From Acidimicrobiia bacterium (GTDB lineage Bacteria; Actinomycetota; Acidimicrobiia; Spongiisociales; ZC4RG35): DNA of 64,000 nucleotides. The notes under the pieces were generated by a model. It had not been told where the DNA came from. It did not search any database and saw only the letters and a list, made by a program, of their open reading frames with translations. This document shows positions 15,993 through 22,470 of the stretch, piece by piece. The position numbers and the translations under genes were made by a program. The DNA lies in NCBI GenBank assembly GCA_965204615.1, contig OZ242000.1, positions 214,956 through 278,955 of the forward strand, written 5' to 3'. The stretch's first letter is position 1, and every line of letters begins with the position of its first letter.

Positions 15993-18900
15993 GTGAAGTT
16001 TGATTGGGCCTGTTGGTTGGGGGTTGTGTTGGGGTTGATGCTCTTAGGTGGGATGGCGGGTGCGGTTGATGATGACGGTTTTGCCTTGCAGGCTGCTGGG
16101 GGTGTTCCGTTGGGTTCTGATTCGTTTGTGGATGTGCCGGTAGGGCATTGGGCTGATGAGGCAGTCGGGTGGGCGGTTTCTAATGGGGTGATGGAGGGTG
16201 TGGGTGGGGGTCGGTTTGATTTGGAGGGGGTGGTGCCGCGTTGGCAGGTGGTGTCGGCTTTGTATGGGGCGTTTGGTTTGGCCGGTGGTAAGGGAGCCGC
16301 CGGGGGTGTTCCGTTGGGTTCTGATTCGTTTGTGGATGTGCCGGTAGGGCATGTGGCTGATGTGGAGGTTGGGTGGGCGGTTTCTGTTGGGATCACTCAG
16401 GGTGTAGGTGGGGGCAGGTTTGATTTGGATGGTTCAGTGACGCGGGCGCAGATTGTTACGTTTTTGTCTCGGTTGAGTGGTTTGTTGGGTGGTCCGGTTG
16501 GCGGTTCAGGGTTGGGTTCTGATTCGTTGGTGGATGTGCCGGTGGGGCATTGGGCTGATGAGGCGGTCGGTTGGGCGGTTGTGAATGGAGTTTCTCGGGG
16601 TGTGGGTGGGGGCAGGTTTGATATGGATCGGGTGGTGTCGCGGGCGCAGATTGCGACGCTTTTGTTTAGGGTGGTCCGGTTGGTGGAGGAGAGCAAAGTT
16701 GATGTGCGGGTGGAGGCCGGAGATTTCACTGCGGTCTCCGCGGGAACATCGCATTCGTGTGGTTTGCGGGCCGATGGCACCATCGTCTGCTGGGGCCGCA
16801 ACGATGTGGGTCAGGCTGACCCACCCGAGGGAGTTTTCACTGCGATCTCCGCCGGCAATTATCATTCGTGTGGGTTGCGGGCCGATGGCACCATCGTCTG
16901 CTGGGGCCGCAACAACTTGGGCCAGGCTGACCCACCCGACGGAAAGTTCACTGCGGTCTCCGCGGGAAACTCTCATTCGTGTGGGTTGCGGGCCGATGGC
17001 ACCGTTGTCTGTTGGGGCAACAACGGCTCGGGTCAGGCTGACCCACCCGACGGAAAGTTCACTGCGGTGTCCGCCGGGTCATTCCGTTCGTGTGGGTTGC
17101 GGGCCAATGGCACCATCGCCTGCTGGGGCGAAAACCGCGTGGCCGGGACGGATTGTGGGTGGGCGTGTCCCAGGCGGGTTGACCCACCCGACGGGATCTT
17201 CACGGCGGTCAACCTAGGATACCATTCGTGTGGGTTGCGGGCCGATGGCACCGCCGTCTGCTGGGGCCTCAACAACTGGGGCCAGGCTGACCCACCCGAC
17301 GGCGAGTTCACGGCGGTCTCCGCCGCCGAAGGAACGCATTCGTGTGGTTTGCGGACCGGTGGCACCATTGTCTGCTGGGGCAGCAACAAATGGGGCCAGG
17401 CTGACCCACCCGACGGCGAGTTCACTGCGGTCACCACAGGAGGAGGGCATTCGTGTGGTTTGCGGGCCGATGGCACCATTGTCTGCTGGGGCCACAACAA
17501 CCGGGGCCAGACTGACGTACCCAAAAAGTTCACGGCGGTCACCACCGGACATCGGCATTCGTGTGGTTTGCGGGCCGATGGCATCATCGTCTGCTGGGGC
17601 AGCAACATATACGTGGGCCGGGTTGAGCAACCCGGCGAGTTCACGGGGGTCTCCGCCGGAAGCGAGCATTCGTGTGGTTTGCGGGCCGATGGCACCATCG
17701 TCTGCTGGGGAAACAACTCAGATCGGAACGGAGACTATGCGGGTCAGGCTGACCCGCCCGACGGGGATTTCACGGGGGTCTCTGCCGGAGGAGGGCATTC
17801 GTGTGGTTTGCGGGTCGATGGCACCATCGTCTGCTGGGGCCTCAACGCCGACGGTCAGGCTGACCCGCCCGACGGGGATTTCACGGCGGTCACCACCGGA
17901 GAGTTGCATTCGTGTGGTTTGCGGGTCGATGGCGCCATTGTCTGCTGGGGCTGGAACAGATACGGTCAGGTTGACCCGCCCGACGGGGATTTCACGGCGG
18001 TCTCCGCCGGAGGAACGTACTCGTGTGGTTTGCGGGTCGATGGCACCATCGTCTGCTGGGGCGACAACGGCAACGGTCAGGTTGACCCGCCCGACGGGGA
18101 TTTCACGGCGGTCTCCGCCGGATCGTGGCATTCGTGTGGTTTGCGGGTCGATGGCACCATCGTCTGCTGGGGCTTCAACGGCAACGGCGAGGTTGACCCG
18201 CCCGACGGGGATTTCACGGCGGTCTCCGCCGGACAATCGCATTCGTGTGGTTGGCGGGCCGATGGCACCATCGCCTGCTGGGGCAGCAACAAATGGGGCC
18301 AGGCTGACCCACCCGACGGGGATTTCACGGCGGTCACCACCGGAGAGTTGCATTCGTGTGGTTTGCGGGTCGATGGCACCGTCGTCTGCTGGGGCGGAAA
18401 CTGGGTGGGTCAGGCTGACCCGCCCGACGGGGATTTCACGGCGGTCTCTGCCGGAGAGTGGCATTCGTGTGGTTTGCGGGCCGATGGCGCCATTGTCTGC
18501 TGGGGTCTCAACTCAGATTGGAACGGTGAGTATGCGGGTCAGGCTGACCCGCCCGATGGGAATTTCACGGCGGTTTCCGCCGGATATTGGCATTCGTGTG
18601 GTTGGCGGGCCGATGGCACCGTCGTCTGCTGGGGCGAAAACTACGCGGGCCGGGCTGACCCACCCGACGGGGATTTCACGGCGGTCACCACAGGAAGTGG
18701 ACATTCGTGTGGTTGGCGGGCCGATGGCACCGTCGTCTGCTGGGGCCGCAACAATGTGGGTCAGGCTGACCCGCCCGACGGGGATTTCACGGCGGTTTCC
18801 GCCGGATATTGGCATTCGTGTGGGTTGCGGGCCGATGGCGCCATTGTCTGCTGGGGATACAACTCAGATTGGAACGGTGAGTATGCGGGTCAGGCTGACC

Positions 18901-19133
18901 CACCCGACGGGGATTTCACGGCGGTGTCCGCCGGATCGTGGCATTCGTGTGGGTTGCGGGCCGATGGCACCATCGTTTGCTGGGGCCAAAACGACGCGGG
19001 TCAGGCTGACCCACCCGACGGAGATTTCACGGCGGTTTCCGCCGCACAGTGGCATTCGTGTGGTTTGCGGACCGGTGGCATCATCGTCTGCTGGGGAAAC
19101 AACCGTTACGGCCAGGCTGAACCACCTCGCTAA
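15993..19133 (+). CDS. Secreted protein with three SLH domains and 21 RCC1/BLIP-II-like repeats
   Basis: Signal peptide; three FVDVPVGHWADEAVGWAV...VTRAQI-type SLH repeats; 21 repeats of FTAVSAGxxHSCGLRADGTIVCWGxNxxGQADPPDG. Confidence 0.93.
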   Translation: MKFDWACWLGVVLGLMLLGGMAGAVDDDGFALQAAGGVPLGSDSFVDVPVGHWADEAVGWAVSNGVMEGVGGGRFDLEGVVPRWQVVSALYGAFGLAGGKGAAGGVPLGSDSFVDVPVGHVADVEVGWAVSVGITQGVGGGRFDLDGSVTRAQIVTFLSRLSGLLGGPVGGSGLGSDSLVDVPVGHWADEAVGWAVVNGVSRGVGGGRFDMDRVVSRAQIATLLFRVVRLVEESKVDVRVEAGDFTAVSAGTSHSCGLRADGTIVCWGRNDVGQADPPEGVFTAISAGNYHSCGLRADGTIVCWGRNNLGQADPPDGKFTAVSAGNSHSCGLRADGTVVCWGNNGSGQADPPDGKFTAVSAGSFRSCGLRANGTIACWGENRVAGTDCGWACPRRVDPPDGIFTAVNLGYHSCGLRADGTAVCWGLNNWGQADPPDGEFTAVSAAEGTHSCGLRTGGTIVCWGSNKWGQADPPDGEFTAVTTGGGHSCGLRADGTIVCWGHNNRGQTDVPKKFTAVTTGHRHSCGLRADGIIVCWGSNIYVGRVEQPGEFTGVSAGSEHSCGLRADGTIVCWGNNSDRNGDYAGQADPPDGDFTGVSAGGGHSCGLRVDGTIVCWGLNADGQADPPDGDFTAVTTGELHSCGLRVDGAIVCWGWNRYGQVDPPDGDFTAVSAGGTYSCGLRVDGTIVCWGDNGNGQVDPPDGDFTAVSAGSWHSCGLRVDGTIVCWGFNGNGEVDPPDGDFTAVSAGQSHSCGWRADGTIACWGSNKWGQADPPDGDFTAVTTGELHSCGLRVDGTVVCWGGNWVGQADPPDGDFTAVSAGEWHSCGLRADGAIVCWGLNSDWNGEYAGQADPPDGNFTAVSAGYWHSCGWRADGTVVCWGENYAGRADPPDGDFTAVTTGSGHSCGWRADGTVVCWGRNNVGQADPPDGDFTAVSAGYWHSCGLRADGAIVCWGYNSDWNGEYAGQADPPDGDFTAVSAGSWHSCGLRADGTIVCWGQNDAGQADPPDGDFTAVSAAQWHSCGLRTGGIIVCWGNNRYGQAEPPR
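16722..19130 (+). repeat. Tandem ~111-bp coding repeat array (21 units)
   Basis: Near-invariant core CATTCGTGTGGTTTGCGGGCCGATGGCACCATCGTCTGCTGGGGC recurring mostly every 111 bp, with a few indel variants. Confidence 0.97.
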
Positions 19134-19346
19134 GACACCCCGTGCGTTATTCCAAGACACCCTCGAAGAGACATGGTGCCAATCTGAACTGGGTCATCGC
19201 AATTAGGTGTGGAGTGTGATGGCGGTGTTCTGGACCCTGGAAGAAGTTGTCGGGAAGTCTGGATGTGGCCAAGACCCACGGGGAATAGCAGCGGTTACAC
19301 CTGTCCAGATCGTGGCTGATGGTGATCGGGGAACGGGGGACCGGTC

Positions 19347-19505
19347 TCAGGAGTCCAGGTAGTGGTTCCACTCTTGCATGAGGTTGCGGCGTCGTTCGAG
19401 TAGGTCTGTTCTGGCGTAGGCTTTTTCGACGGTGTTTCTGATTTCGTGGCCGAGGGCACGTTCTGCGATCTCGCGGGCTGTGCCGGTTTCTGCGCACCAG
19501 TCTCG
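19347..19505 (-). pseudogene. C-terminal remnant of a P4-type tyrosine integrase
   Basis: Manual translation RDWCAETGTAREIAERALGHEIRNTVEKAYARTDLLERRRNLMQEWNHYLDS*, containing LGH and the catalytic Tyr; cut by an IS21-like end. Confidence 0.8.
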
Positions 19506-19506
19506 G

Positions 19507-19555
19507 TGATGGGGATCATTGAAAGTACTCAGGCCTGATCACTGAAAGTACTCAT
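19507..19555 (+). mobile_element. IS21-like terminal end
   Basis: TGATGGGGATCATTGAAAGTACTCAGGCCTGATCACTGAAAGTACTCAT with tandem GATCA.TGAAAGTACTCA repeats. Confidence 0.65.
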
Positions 19556-19649
19556 GTGTTGGGGGTTAATACCCGTAGTCGGGTTGTGTTGGCGATCACT
19601 GAAGCATCCCAGTCTCGATCACTGAAAGTTCCCATGCGTGTTATATGTG

Positions 19650-19850
19650 GGGGGTGTGGCAGTGCCGGTGGGGATGGCTCCAAAGTTCCCTGCCGATTCC
19701 CCTTTTTGGGGGATTTGGCTTTCAGGTGAGTGCCTCCCCACCGGTTGCCGGCCCGGTGTTGTCGCTTGATAGGAGCGTGACCTAGACCGTTTGATCGGTG
19801 TCTGTTGCTCAACGCATGGATGCGCTTCACCGAGCTTTCTGCCGCTCCCG
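19650..19850 (+). ncRNA. Putative bridge RNA of IS110 A
   Basis: Two stem-enclosed loops with four guide segments matching the target and donor junctions (9/9, 7/7, 8/8, 8/8); RNA ends approximate. Confidence 0.75.
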
Positions 19851-19883
19851 AACAAAGCCCCTATTCGATTGGAGAAGAAGCCG

Positions 19884-20912
19884 ATGTTGGTTATCGGGAT
19901 CGACTCGCACAAGGATACCCTTTCGGCCTGTTTGGTGGACCACCTGGGCACGGCCCTGGAGTACCGCACCATCGCTAACACCCCTGCCGGTCACCGCCAG
20001 TTGGTTGATTGGGCGGAGACCACCAAGGCGGCCACAGTGGCGGTTGAGGGGTCCGGCACGTTCGGTCGTCCACTGGCGGTGGCTGCTGTCGGCGCCGGTC
20101 TGGACGTTCGGGAGGTGCCGCCCCAGCTGACCGCCCGCCTTCGCCGCCGGGGCCGTACCCAGACCAAGACCGACCAGGTCGACGCGTTGGTGATCGCCCG
20201 GGTCGCTCTCCGAGACCACACCCTTTCTGCTCCAACCCATTGGGAGGACACCGAAGACCTGCGTGTGCTGGTCTCATACCGCCGTGAACTGGTAGAAGAC
20301 CGCACCGCAGGGGCCAACCGTCTCCACGCCGACCTGGGGAAGCTCCGACCCGGCTACCACCAGAACATTCCCCGGTTCACCACCCGAAAAGCCCTTGACC
20401 AGGCCATGAAACTCTTATGGCGGGACACCACCTGTCACGGGCGGGTAGCCAAACAACGCATCCGAAGACTGCGACAGCTGGACACCGAGATCAAAGAGCT
20501 CACCGCCCAGATCAAAACACTGGTCGACCAATCCGGAACCCGTCTACTCGACATTCACGGAGTGGGGGTGCTGGTCGCTGCCACCATCCTCTCGGAGGTG
20601 GGCAACCCCCACCGCTATCCGACCAAAGACAAGTTCGCCATGGCCAACGGCACCGCACCCATCGAAGCCAGTTCCGGGCGGATAGTGAGACATCGCCTCA
20701 ACCGCGGTGGGAACCGCCAACTCAACCGGGCAATCCACACCGCCGCCTTGACCCAGATCGCACGCGCAGACAGCGAAGGCCGCCGCTACTACCAGAAACT
20801 CAAAACCCGCGGGAAAACCCACAGAGACGCAATCCGCGTCCTCAAAAGACGAATCTCAGACCGCATCTGGACCCACCTCCAACCACCAAAAACCGGCCCG
20901 ATTTTGCCATAG
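19884..20912 (+). CDS. IS110-family DEDD recombinase/transposase
   Basis: VIGIDSHKD, VAVEGSG, KTDQVDA, GVGVLVAA, ASSG...HRLNRGGNRQLN. Confidence 0.95.
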   Translation: MLVIGIDSHKDTLSACLVDHLGTALEYRTIANTPAGHRQLVDWAETTKAATVAVEGSGTFGRPLAVAAVGAGLDVREVPPQLTARLRRRGRTQTKTDQVDALVIARVALRDHTLSAPTHWEDTEDLRVLVSYRRELVEDRTAGANRLHADLGKLRPGYHQNIPRFTTRKALDQAMKLLWRDTTCHGRVAKQRIRRLRQLDTEIKELTAQIKTLVDQSGTRLLDIHGVGVLVAATILSEVGNPHRYPTKDKFAMANGTAPIEASSGRIVRHRLNRGGNRQLNRAIHTAALTQIARADSEGRRYYQKLKTRGKTHRDAIRVLKRRISDRIWTHLQPPKTGPILP

Positions 20913-21021
20913 GAGCTCACCTCCTGGGGGTAAATGCCCGTTGTTGGGTAGGGCTCTCTCCAAGCTAAGGGATTGTCACATTTCCTAGCTGTGGAGAGGA
21001 GCCCTGCCCCTTATGATGCTT

Positions 21022-22096
21022 CTATGGTTTCCAAATCGGTCTCTGGGGGTGGTGGGGGTTGGTTGGTGGGTTTTCGAGGAGGCGGTAGAGCTGGCGGGCT
21101 ATGTAGCGTTTGAGGCAGCGGCGGGCTTCTCGGGTGGTTTTGCCTTGGCTGATGCGTTTGGCGAGGTAGGCCCGGGTTTTGGGACAGTATCGGGAGCGGC
21201 TGAGGGCGATGGTGTGGAGGGCCTGGTTGAGTTTTCGGTCGCCGCGTCTGTTCAGTCGGTGGCGGGTTCGTTGGCCGGAGGAGGCTTGTAGGGGGGCGAC
21301 GCCGGCTAGCCGAGCGAACGCTGCTTCGTTGCGGCACCGGCGAGGGTGAGACCATGCTATGTAGATTTGGGTGGCGGTGATCGGTCCTACTCCGGGCTGG
21401 TCGAGCAGGTGGGGAGCGACAGTGGTGATCAGTTCGGTGATGGTTGTTCTCAGTTGGTTTGCTTCGTCGGTGAGGGCTCGGATCCGGCGGGCTGCGGATC
21501 GCATGGCTTGTTTGGTTGCGGTGTGTTCGTTGATGGTGTCGGACGGGAGGCGGAACCCGGAGCATTTGGCCACCAGAGCTGTGGTGGTGAGTCCTCGGAG
21601 TTGGTCGCGTAGATCGACCGGCGCGGTTACTAGGAGGGCTTTCAGTTCGTTGATCGCCGCTGTTCTGGCTGTTATTGCGCCTCGGCGGGTGGTTTCCAAC
21701 ACTCGGAGGGCTTCGCGGTTTCCACGTACCCGCGGTGCAGAAGGCTGGGAGCGGCCTAGTGTTTGGCGGGCGGCCCGACGAGCGTCCAGGGTGTCGGTCT
21801 TGGCACCGTCGATGCTGGGGGTGGGATTGTTGAACTCTATTACCCACTCACCCCGAGCAGCGAGATAGGCCGCTATGCCGGCTCCGTAGCTTCCGGTGCC
21901 TTCCACGGACCACGCCCGGTCGCCGGTTTGGGTGTGCTGATCGGCCCATTTCACCAACCTCTCGTATCCCAACTGGGTGGTCGCGAACGCTGCGGATGCT
22001 TGTTCTCCGGTAGTGGCGGTGTCCACTACCGACGCGGTGACCCGGTCACGATCCGGGTCGATCCCGGATTACATGTTCAACTGATGCCACAGCCAT
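21022..22096 (-). pseudogene. IS110 recombinase with a 1-bp frameshift near the N-terminus
   Basis: MAVASVEHVI joins GIDPDRDRVTASVVD only if one base near 22066 is removed; downstream VEGTGSYG, KTDTLDA, ASSG..RHRLNRRGDRKLN; a sequencing error is possible. Confidence 0.8.
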
Positions 22097-22119
22097 CCCT
22101 TTTCCTTTCTGTTGCTTAC

Positions 22120-22340
22120 AATTTCGGGTTGCCCATAGAGGCGCGATCCGCGAACGGCAGAACTGTGATGAGTCACACCCCCTGGGGGTGGACAGGCTTC
22201 TGATTAGGCCAGCGCGGTACGCAGGCTGCTGCTGGCGGTTGGTGTCGGACAGATCATAAGAAAGACACCTAACGGGGTCAATTGGCACAAGGGTCACGAC
22301 ACCACCACCAGCAGCTGACCTGAAACACTCTCTGAAGAGC
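22120..22340 (-). ncRNA. Putative bridge RNA of IS110 B
   Basis: Long stem 22228-22247/22297-22315 and hairpin CACCCCCTGGGGGTG; segments complementary to both junctions (8/8 each); ends approximate. Confidence 0.65.
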
Positions 22341-22359
22341 ATCCCCCACATTCTCACAG

Positions 22360-22470
22360 TTGGTCCAGGAGGAGTACTTGGAGGTTCATGCTTTGAGGAG
22401 GCGGGGGTGGTCGATCTCGGCTATTGCCCGCCATATTGGAAAGAGACGCCGAACCGTCCGGGGGCAATGA
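22360..22470 (+). pseudogene. istA: IS21 transposase IstA N-terminal fragment
   Basis: LVQEEYLEVHALRRRGWSISAIARHIGKRRRTVRG*, a typical IstA HTH start. Confidence 0.78.

Follow-up and report, generated by a model that had tools for sequence, protein, structure and literature searches.

An IS110-group insertion sequence whose predicted bridge RNA matches the terminal repeats of IS21 elements in an Acidimicrobiia genome

The stretch of DNA analysed here (the window) comprises 64,000 nucleotides (nt) of an Acidimicrobiia bacterium (GenBank assembly GCA_965204615.1, contig OZ242000.1, positions 214,956 to 278,955 of the forward strand; the source genome is called G000 below). At 19635-20917 on its plus strand lies an IS110-family element of 1,283 base pairs (bp), copy A, which has the dinucleotide CA on both sides and is situated in the end of an insertion sequence (IS) of the IS21 type. 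It consists of a left end of 249 nt, a recombinase gene, and a right end reaching 5 nt past the stop codon, followed by the core. Long terminal inverted repeats are absent, and the empty sites of this copy and of two sister copies (B and C) indicate that insertion adds only the shared 2-bp core. An earlier note on this DNA had described the element as an intact, RNA-guided hyperparasite of IS21 elements. The features of the element and of its site are the following (window coordinates):

19635-20917, plus strand: body of copy A, with left end (19635-19883, 249 nt), recombinase gene (19884-20912) and right end (20913-20917)
19633-19634, plus strand: left copy of the CA core, the 2-bp overlap of the flanking IS21 alignments
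20918-20919, plus strand: right copy of the CA core, from the IS21 alignment across the insertion
20909-20917, plus strand: left donor sequence ATAGGAGCT, overlapping the stop codon TAG at 20910-12
19884-20912, plus strand: recombinase gene, 342 amino acids (aa), with a DEDD RuvC-like domain and a Tnp domain
19587-19634, plus strand: terminal 48 bp of the IS21 at its end upstream of istA, a 94% match to positions 2287-2240 of an intact 2,287-bp IS21
20918-21015, plus strand: the interrupted IS21 resumes (IS21 positions 2241-2144, 100% identity), CCTCC at 20920-24 being the right target half
22359-22457: further IS21 segment (IS21 positions 2144-2046, 90% identity)

The intact IS21 used as reference (G000 1302531-1304817, 2,287 bp) encodes, in the order istA then istB, an IstA of 431 aa with the rve (3.5e-11) and Mu-transposase C-terminal domains above their cut-offs (helix-turn-helix matches are weak and below cut-off; NF033546 scores 180.8 bits at a cut-off of 160), and an IstB of 262 aa (PF01695, 1.1e-75). 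The genome contains six intact copies, at two of which 4-bp target duplications (GCGT, ACAT) are found. The 18-mer GATCACTGAAAGTTCCCA and its variants occur as inward-pointing pairs behind the tips TGATGAC and TGTTGGC of these 2.28-kb elements. At copy A, the IS21 end begins with the tip TGTTGGC and has 18-bp direct repeats at 19594-19611 and 19617-19634, the inner of which is the left target half.

In intact IS21 copies, the uninterrupted site reads GATCACTGAAAGTTCC-CA-CCTCC. Compared with these, the net gain at copy A is 1,283 bp plus one CA, and the two IS21 pieces share exactly this CA. On the istA side of the IS21, the insertion point follows the tip at a distance of 46-48 bp; it lies just beyond the inner 18-bp repeat and 94 bp upstream of the istA start. 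Both the CA core and the IS21 terminal repeat as target, as proposed in the earlier note, are confirmed by these comparisons: the core appears as a 2-bp overlap when an intact IS21 is aligned over the insertion, and likewise for copies B and C; the left guide of the RNA described below matches the inner 18-bp repeat, and elements with that repeat encode IstA and IstB.

Concerning the recombinase, the open frame extends from 19791 to 20912, with the ATG at 19884 as the most likely start. Its assignment to the IS110 family, made in the same note, is borne out by PF01548 in the N-terminal part (3.7e-32), PF02371 in the C-terminal part (8.1e-21), and the NCBIfam profile NF033542 ('IS110 family RNA-guided transposase', 212.1 bits, cut-off 140). 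The best matches among solved structures are IS621 (8wt6, E 2.7e-18) and ISCro4 (9t56, 7.7e-16). In the alignment with IS621 chain 8wt6_A, residues D7, E55, D97, D100 and S264 fall on its IGID, E-A-T-G, KTDxVD and E-S-G motifs, the catalytic residues being named after PMC11208158.

The class of guide RNAs to which the left end of copy A is compared, termed bridge RNA or seekRNA, was published in 2024 (PMC11208160, PMC11208158, PMC11187229). The predicted RNA has the following parts:

19656-19845, plus strand: predicted bridge RNA, with outer stem 19656-62/19839-45 (ends approximate, taken from folds)
19664-19745, plus strand: target-binding loop, with stems 19664-74/19735-45 and 19676-78/19732-34 and inner hairpin 19692-19719
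19682-90, 19724-28 and 19729-30, plus strand: left target guide AAAGTTCCC, right target guide AGGTG and handshake bases AG
19750-19836, plus strand: donor-binding loop, with stems 19750-52/19834-36, 19754-58/19828-32 and 19763-65/19822-24 and inner hairpin 19777-19811
19769-76, 19812-18 and 19819, plus strand: left donor guide ATAGGAGC, right donor guide ACGCATG and handshake base G

All guide strings listed in the earlier note were re-found in place by script, at the coordinates given there. The left target guide occurs identically (9 of 9 positions) in the IS21 flank at 19625-33 and in the loop, and AGGTGAG (19724-30) is the reverse complement of CTCACCT (20916-22), such that the right target guide pairs with CA plus CCT, and AG with the CT closing the right end of the element. 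The left donor guide recurs at the right end (20909-16), and ACGCATGG (19812-19) is the reverse complement of the left junction (19632-39). In each of the two internal loops, the left guide matches one DNA strand and the right guide the other, the DNA being the target for the first loop and the joined ends for the second. When 19648-19883 was shuffled 200,000 times by mononucleotide, the single counts of the four guide words were 66, 2,753, 344 and 672; at least two of them were encountered together 11 times, and all four together never.

For the left end, the predicted fold has -96.6 kcal/mol (z -3.84; no shuffle among 200 reached so low a value) and consists of an outer stem plus two modules of stem, internal loop and hairpin, and the same modules form at -91.2 kcal/mol if the four guides are held single-stranded. 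As the note had claimed, the layout is that of a bridge RNA: the guides lie in two loops, and the minimum-free-energy fold contains the stem GCCGGTGGGGA/TCCCCACCGGT (19664-74/19735-45) that closes the first of them as well as the hairpin inside it (19692-19719). It corresponds to the published layout as given in the excerpts of PMC11208158 and PMC11208160. A search of 19000-21500 against Rfam 15, with E up to 1, yielded no match.

For comparison, 61 genomes (the source genome and 60 relatives) were searched, of which 21, including G000, contained an IS110-family match with E <=1e-40. Close relatives of the element (84-92% identity) are found in the same-genus genomes G002, G003, G007, G008 and G011, more distant ones (44-65%) in G001, G004, G009, G012 and G035. 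When the left ends were aligned with MAFFT, RNAalifold recovered only the conserved outer stems, and the variable hairpins were misaligned; the hairpins were therefore folded sequence by sequence, and the pairs of a hand-mapped scaffold were counted. The inner hairpins between the guides differ in sequence among the relatives and were formed in all 13 variants folded individually. Counted over 16 sequences (498 cells), 89.8% of the cells for the 32 scaffold pairs hold a standard pair, compared with 40-54% when the partners are slid, a control biased in favour of the scaffold by its having been mapped by hand from copy A. Six scaffold pairs are changed on both sides, and the covariation score is 0.124 versus 0.084 in shuffled data (0 of 500 as high). 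A pairing of the first five left-end bases with the right donor guide, also suggested by RNAalifold, was rejected, as it merely reflects the match between guide and donor.

Guides and flanks were compared in 17 elements, namely copies A, B and C and 14 from related Acidimicrobiia genomes, leaving aside the duplicated L044 and L048 as well as L049 and L056-L067. The left guide (9 nt) agrees with the own left flank at 135 of 153 positions (permuted mean 81.3, standard deviation 6.2), and in the 14 elements with a right end, the right guide agrees with the own right flank at 67 of 84 positions (permuted mean 35.9, standard deviation 4.7); neither value was reached in 20,000 permutations, figures that overstate independence since the elements are kin and several have guides in common. 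Target position 7 is complementary to the handshake base of the donor loop in all 17 elements (G:C in 12, T:A in 5), and the target-loop AG pairs with the donor CT in all aligned elements. Such a handshake rule is described for IS621 (PMC11208158, in the excerpts used).

The core itself varies among the relatives. Four of them (those of G009, G012 and G004, and L028 of G001) have CG at both junctions, the others CA, and exactly these four carry a C, in place of U, before the constant GAG of the right target guide. Their right donor guide reads ACGCACG (ACACACG in G012) versus ACGCATG in the CA elements, and their left donor guide, ATAGAAGCTCG, spans the core fully. The register of the left target guide differs as well, its 9-mer ending on the first core base in the subclade of copy A and on the second in L051, L021 and the CG clade. 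The Caldilineaceae element L061, on contig JAPPKG010000266.1 of a metagenome-assembled genome assigned to a different phylum, has an RNA scaffold nearly identical to that of copy A and junctions with CT on the left and CA on the right, which could be due to mis-binning, horizontal transfer, or an insertion with mismatched core.

Three full copies of the element exist in the source genome, with DNA identities of 100, 97 and 93% and protein identities of 100, 97 and 94%, and all frames are open. The earlier note had suggested examining whether the flanks of further copies fit, and they do: copy B lies in an IS21 end, copy C combines changed guides with a correspondingly changed site, and the guides of the relatives covary with their flanks. 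Copies A and B differ by about 2%, and the guides of both match the target perfectly. Copy B (97%) has the same guides; its host is another IS21, whose opposite end it occupies at 46-48 bp from the tip and 17 bp past the istB stop, and the 2-bp overlap falls on IS21 positions 47-48. This arrangement is not explained by copying of an IS21 that already contained the element, and A and B are therefore independent insertions. Copy C (93%) possesses the guide AAACCCCCC where copy A has AAAGTTCCC, and GATGAG where copy A has GGTGAG, and is flanked by GAAACCCCC-CA and TCGGTC. The gene interrupted by it encodes an IS1182-family transposase (positions 9-97 of the NF033551 profile on one side, 97-487 on the other), and the empty site, GAAACCC(C/T)TCA-TCGGTC, is found in four other copies of that IS1182-family element. 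The IS21 that hosts copy B also holds an IS3-family element of 1,275 bp (G000 439066-440340, L068), which is inserted with a 7-bp overlap and has an open reading frame with HTH_Tnp_1 and one with rve.

In addition, five relic left ends were found in the source genome. The guide of relic L021, CCTGTGACA, equals its own flank at 9 of 9 positions. That of relic L004, AACTGAACC, agrees with the flank of relic L010 at 9 of 9 and with its own at 6 of 9. Relics L005 and L016 are situated in IS21-like terminal repeats, as judged by the motif of tip plus repeat alone; the guide of L005 matches at 6 of 9 positions, and in L016 the loop is lost. Altogether, five of the eight insertion sites of the clade in this genome lie within other insertion sequences or IS21-like ends.

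The 13-mer target predicted from the guides of copies A and B (AAAGTTCCCACCT) has three exact unoccupied sites in the 3.33-Mb genome, with 0.04 expected by chance, and all three are the istA-side end of intact IS21 copies. Eight further sites deviate by one mismatch, six of which are the other end of IS21 copies. By this census, IS21 ends are nearly the only sites in this genome to which the guides of copies A and B are directed. In other genomes, the guides of close relatives (AAATGAACC, AAATGGACC, AACTGAACC, AAACGACCC) and their flanks are different, the flanks not being IS21 ends; an exception is the internally deleted L067, whose left junction (and this junction only) lies in an IS21-like outer repeat. 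A palindrome as the target of all relatives was considered and rejected, as an inverted-repeat arm is present in only 4 of 18 left flanks.

Joining of the element's ends would bring together two promoter-like hexamers:

20904-20909, plus strand: -35-like hexamer TTGCCA, within the last recombinase codons (TTGACA in copies B and C)
19642-19647, plus strand: -10-like hexamer TATATG, preceded by TG at 19639-40, the final T of a -10 being absent

Circularisation would, as had been predicted in the earlier note, create TTGCCA and TATATG at a distance of 17 bp, and the same spacer results in copies B and C. Candidate hexamers spaced 16-18 bp apart exist in all 14 elements in which the right end was found. 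In the integrated arrangement, a scan for sigma-70-like sites gave none, its rule (T at position 6 of the -10) being one that would also reject TATATG. This fits the weak RNA expression of integrated IS110-family copies reported in the excerpts of PMC13626964, where excision is moreover stated to be less efficient than insertion.

On the sequence evidence, 19635-20917 is very probably an IS110-group element that was inserted by bridge-RNA-guided recombination at CA, at the inner edge of the second 18-bp repeat of an IS21 end. We infer transcription, circle formation and present-day activity, as steps of a cycle, by analogy with IS621. In such a cycle, excision would bring the two ends of the element together at CA, and the joined ends would assemble a promoter from the -35 TTGCCA (TTGACA in the sister copies), the 17-bp spacer and TG-n-TATATG, from which an RNA of about 190 nt and the recombinase gene would be transcribed. 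The RNA would fold into two modules. In the target loop, AAAGUUCCC would pair with the bottom strand of GAAAGTTCC-C and AGGUG with the top strand of CA-CCT, and the AG of this loop would pair with the donor CT following the first strand exchange. The joined ends (ATAGGAGCT-CA-TGCGT) would be held in the donor loop by AUAGGAGC and ACGCAUG, with G pairing with target position 7, and the DEDD/Ser recombinase would exchange strands at CA.

Several observations weigh against this reading or part of it, in addition to the kinship of the compared elements mentioned above. Left guides and flanks of the individual elements agree at 6 to 9 of 9 positions, some relatives reaching only 6 or 7, and L023 of G003 fits its guide only if the register is shifted by 1 nt, whereas its sister L058 has the usual register (8 of 9). 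In the CA clade, the left target guide mismatches the second core base (U opposite the A position), and the left donor guide mismatches position 7 and the core (ATAGGAGCGTG versus ATAGGAGCTCA), whereas pairing to both core strands is strongly preferred in IS621 (PMC11208160, in excerpt). Nine cognate or near-cognate IS21 sites are unoccupied, and the -35 of copy A, TTGCCA, is a weakened one compared with the TTGACA of 12 of 14 elements with a right end, such that activity may be low or lost. Both IS21 copies that host the element are otherwise dead, that of copy A being truncated and containing a second IS110-family element, that of copy B carrying the IS3 insertion, and the insertions may be old. 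A joint of right and left end, as expected in a circle, was not encountered in the contigs of four sequencing runs on 19450-21100, contigs being prone to lose rare forms. The run contigs on the same interval contain the empty-site form (1,285 bases skipped in runs X1-X3, with two ambiguous letters), which may derive from other IS21 copies. The unusual L023 and L044, two of the three copies in G003, have long near-identical flanks and lie within a larger repeated unit; both show the 1-nt shift, unlike the third copy, L058.

Among the rival explanations, the one that survives best concerns the relation to the host element. IS21 ends might serve as a harmless multi-copy landing pad or vehicle, a safe harbour allowing hitch-hiking, in which case the term hyperparasite would be overstated; we regard this as a serious possibility, if somewhat short of an even one. 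The insertion just past the inner 18-bp repeat, 94 bp before istA in copy A and 17 bp after the istB stop in copy B, with the IS21 genes and terminal repeats left whole, is what one would expect of such a pad. Relatives elsewhere use other sites, among them the inverted-repeat arms (4 of 18), and repeated DNA in general may be favoured. Copy C, however, cuts an IS1182-family transposase gene in two and damages that element, and the IS110 element is missing from all six intact IS21 copies. In IS21-type elements, a junction promoter forms between the tip and istA, and copy A separates istA from precisely this tip. Such a junction promoter is also mentioned in the excerpts of PMC12288879. Of the earlier note's hyperparasite, the insertion into other insertion sequences stands; harm to IS21 would be no more than a possibility, both IS21 genes and both 18-bp repeats being whole.

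That the element is a true bridge-RNA IS110 but by now a fossil, with past RNA-guided insertion, mobility lost and no ongoing interaction with IS21, appears unlikely, though far from negligible. The nine empty matching IS21 sites, the deviating -35 of copy A, the degraded state of both host IS21 copies, and the circle junction unseen in the run contigs would all agree with it, and the five relic left ends demonstrate that decay occurs in this genome. On the other hand, all three frames are open at 94-100% protein identity, the catalytic residues are retained, and copies A and B, only about 2% apart, still have guides perfect against their target. Rare transposition is, moreover, usual for the IS110 family, to judge from the weak integrated expression, and the excision less efficient than insertion, reported in PMC13626964. 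Judged from its letters, the element may well be intact and active.

A choice of the site by the protein alone, as in a classical site-specific recombinase, with the complementarities being incidental, is highly improbable. Nothing speaks specifically for it, although the conservation of scaffold and donor guides is of the kind also expected of a site read by a protein. Against it, loop positions and flanks change together among proteins that remain 84-97% identical, the strand matched by the guides differs between the left and the right of the core, covariation of the handshake base extends to every element of the set, and copy C presents a natural exchange of guides together with a change of target. 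Finally, chance as the source of the guide matches, each of them short (7-9 nt), can practically be dismissed in view of the shuffles, none of which contained all four matches together, and of the cross-element permutations.

The bridge-RNA reading places copy A beside several known systems. With IS621 and ISCro4/IS622 (PMC11208160, PMC11208158; PDB 8wt6, 9t56), it shares, as far as the excerpts of these papers describe them, the two domains and catalytic residues, the long left end and very short right end, and a (here predicted) RNA upstream of the gene with the target loop 5' and the donor loop 3'. Each loop is composed of stem, left guide, hairpin and right guide, with the handshake bases 3' of the right guides; the left guides read the bottom strand and the right guides the top strand; the core is 2 bp long, a promoter would be rebuilt over the joined ends, and in copy A, ATA...TAT surrounds the donor sequence, as in IS621. 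Despite this similarity, there are clear differences: copy A is a distant relative of IS621 (phmmer E 2.7e-18, in two stretches), its core reads CA (CG in the sister clade) instead of CT, the left target guide misses the second core base and the left donor guide falls short of the core in the CA clade, and the natural targets are other insertion sequences rather than repetitive extragenic palindromic (REP) elements. For IS621 and related orthologues, the second core T is called 'almost invariant' in the excerpted part of PMC11208158. The CT core, a feature of IS621 and its close orthologues but not of the whole family, is not that of copy A. A per-orthologue table of core dinucleotides was not among the passages returned by a term search of the six supplementary files of PMC11208160. 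The recombinase/bridge RNA pair with CA core, announced as new in the earlier note, is a further pair and does have this core; its mechanism, in contrast, is not new.

Position and orientation of the insertion resemble a different group. The elements IS4321 and IS5075 of the IS1111 group reportedly insert into the terminal repeats of Tn21-type transposons, and copy A, which belongs to the same IS110/IS1111 superfamily, likewise occupies a terminal repeat of another element at a fixed position and in a fixed orientation. In the IS1111 group, the guide RNA is found downstream of the gene, in the right end, and subterminal inverted repeats of 7-17 bp exist (PMC11208160, in excerpt). The RNA of copy A is located in the left end, its right end has 5 nt, such subterminal repeats are absent, and the host is IS21, not Tn21. 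Copy A is an analogue of IS4321 and IS5075 in its behaviour, not a member of the IS1111 group.

A 'natural reprogramming' of seekRNA is described, in the excerpts of Siddiquee et al. 2024 (PMC11187229), for ISEc11 versus ISXne4. As in these, close kin of copy A differ in their guide segments and are situated in correspondingly different targets, whereas in the present case, both guide versions (A and B versus C) exist in one genome, each for a different IS family. ISPpu9 and ISPpu10 of Pseudomonas putida, according to excerpts of PMC12288879 and 10.64898/2026.03.19.712850, target REP sequences with a crossover that their authors write as AG and form circular intermediates. They are similar in being IS110-family elements with a multi-copy repeat as target and a fixed dinucleotide crossover; their targets are REP sequences, though, and their AG becomes CT when read on the opposite strand, which CA does on neither. 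A full-text search of a limited literature collection found no papers on IS110-family elements aimed at IS21 ends. Particular to the present case are that an IS110-group member with its RNA in the left end is directed at IS21 ends, that a single genome contains two guide sets for two different IS families, and that the core is CA or CG.

The three sister copies thereby document a retargeting of guides within a single genome, with two guide sets, both directed onto other insertion sequences, and with exact empty sites for each. The site-specific targeting of the end of a different element, known for the IS1111 group in Tn21 ends, is extended to the IS110 group and IS21 ends. The agreement in all 17 elements lends natural support to the handshake-base rule, and the CA and CG cores with their matching changes in the right guide bear on the core requirement that limits the choice of sites by IS621-type tools. 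A wider interpretation can be put forward tentatively, and we would sooner doubt than accept it: a marine clade of Acidimicrobiia elements might cross over at CA or CG, with a purine at core position 2, and read the core only via the right-hand guides; in one genome, the guides might have been rewritten from a palindromic repeat to the IS21 terminal repeat and the IS1182 transposase gene, and the targeting of rival mobile elements might be a selected lifestyle. If the purine-core clade were real, it would offer an orthogonal tool with a core requirement different from that of IS621 and IS622.

Concerning the surroundings of copy A, the same IS21 remnant contains, at IS21 position 2144, a second, unrelated IS110-family element (window 21016-22358, minus strand), whose recombinase gene (21022-22026) is about 33% identical to that of copy A and whose junctions share one base only (C). 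Compared with the reference copy, the IS21 pieces flanking it have identities of 100% and 90%, such that the context may be chimeric. In L028 (G001) and L031 (G004), the right end of an IS110 similar to copy A is cut right after the TTGAC of the -35, and the intruding sequence starts with TGTGAGAAT, which is also the start of the left end of the second IS110 of the window; this would be an IS110 in an IS110.

To the left of the host IS21, another IS21-like end (window 19462-19586) with the tip TGATGGG and the repeats GATCATTGAAAGTACTCA and GATCACTGAAAGTACTCA ends at 19586, where the tip of copy A's host IS21 cuts it off. IS21-type ends abutting back to back are also found at G000 2721845. Left of this IS cluster, a protein of 1,046 aa with a weak SLH match and about 21 RCC1 repeats is encoded at window 15993-19133 on the plus strand.

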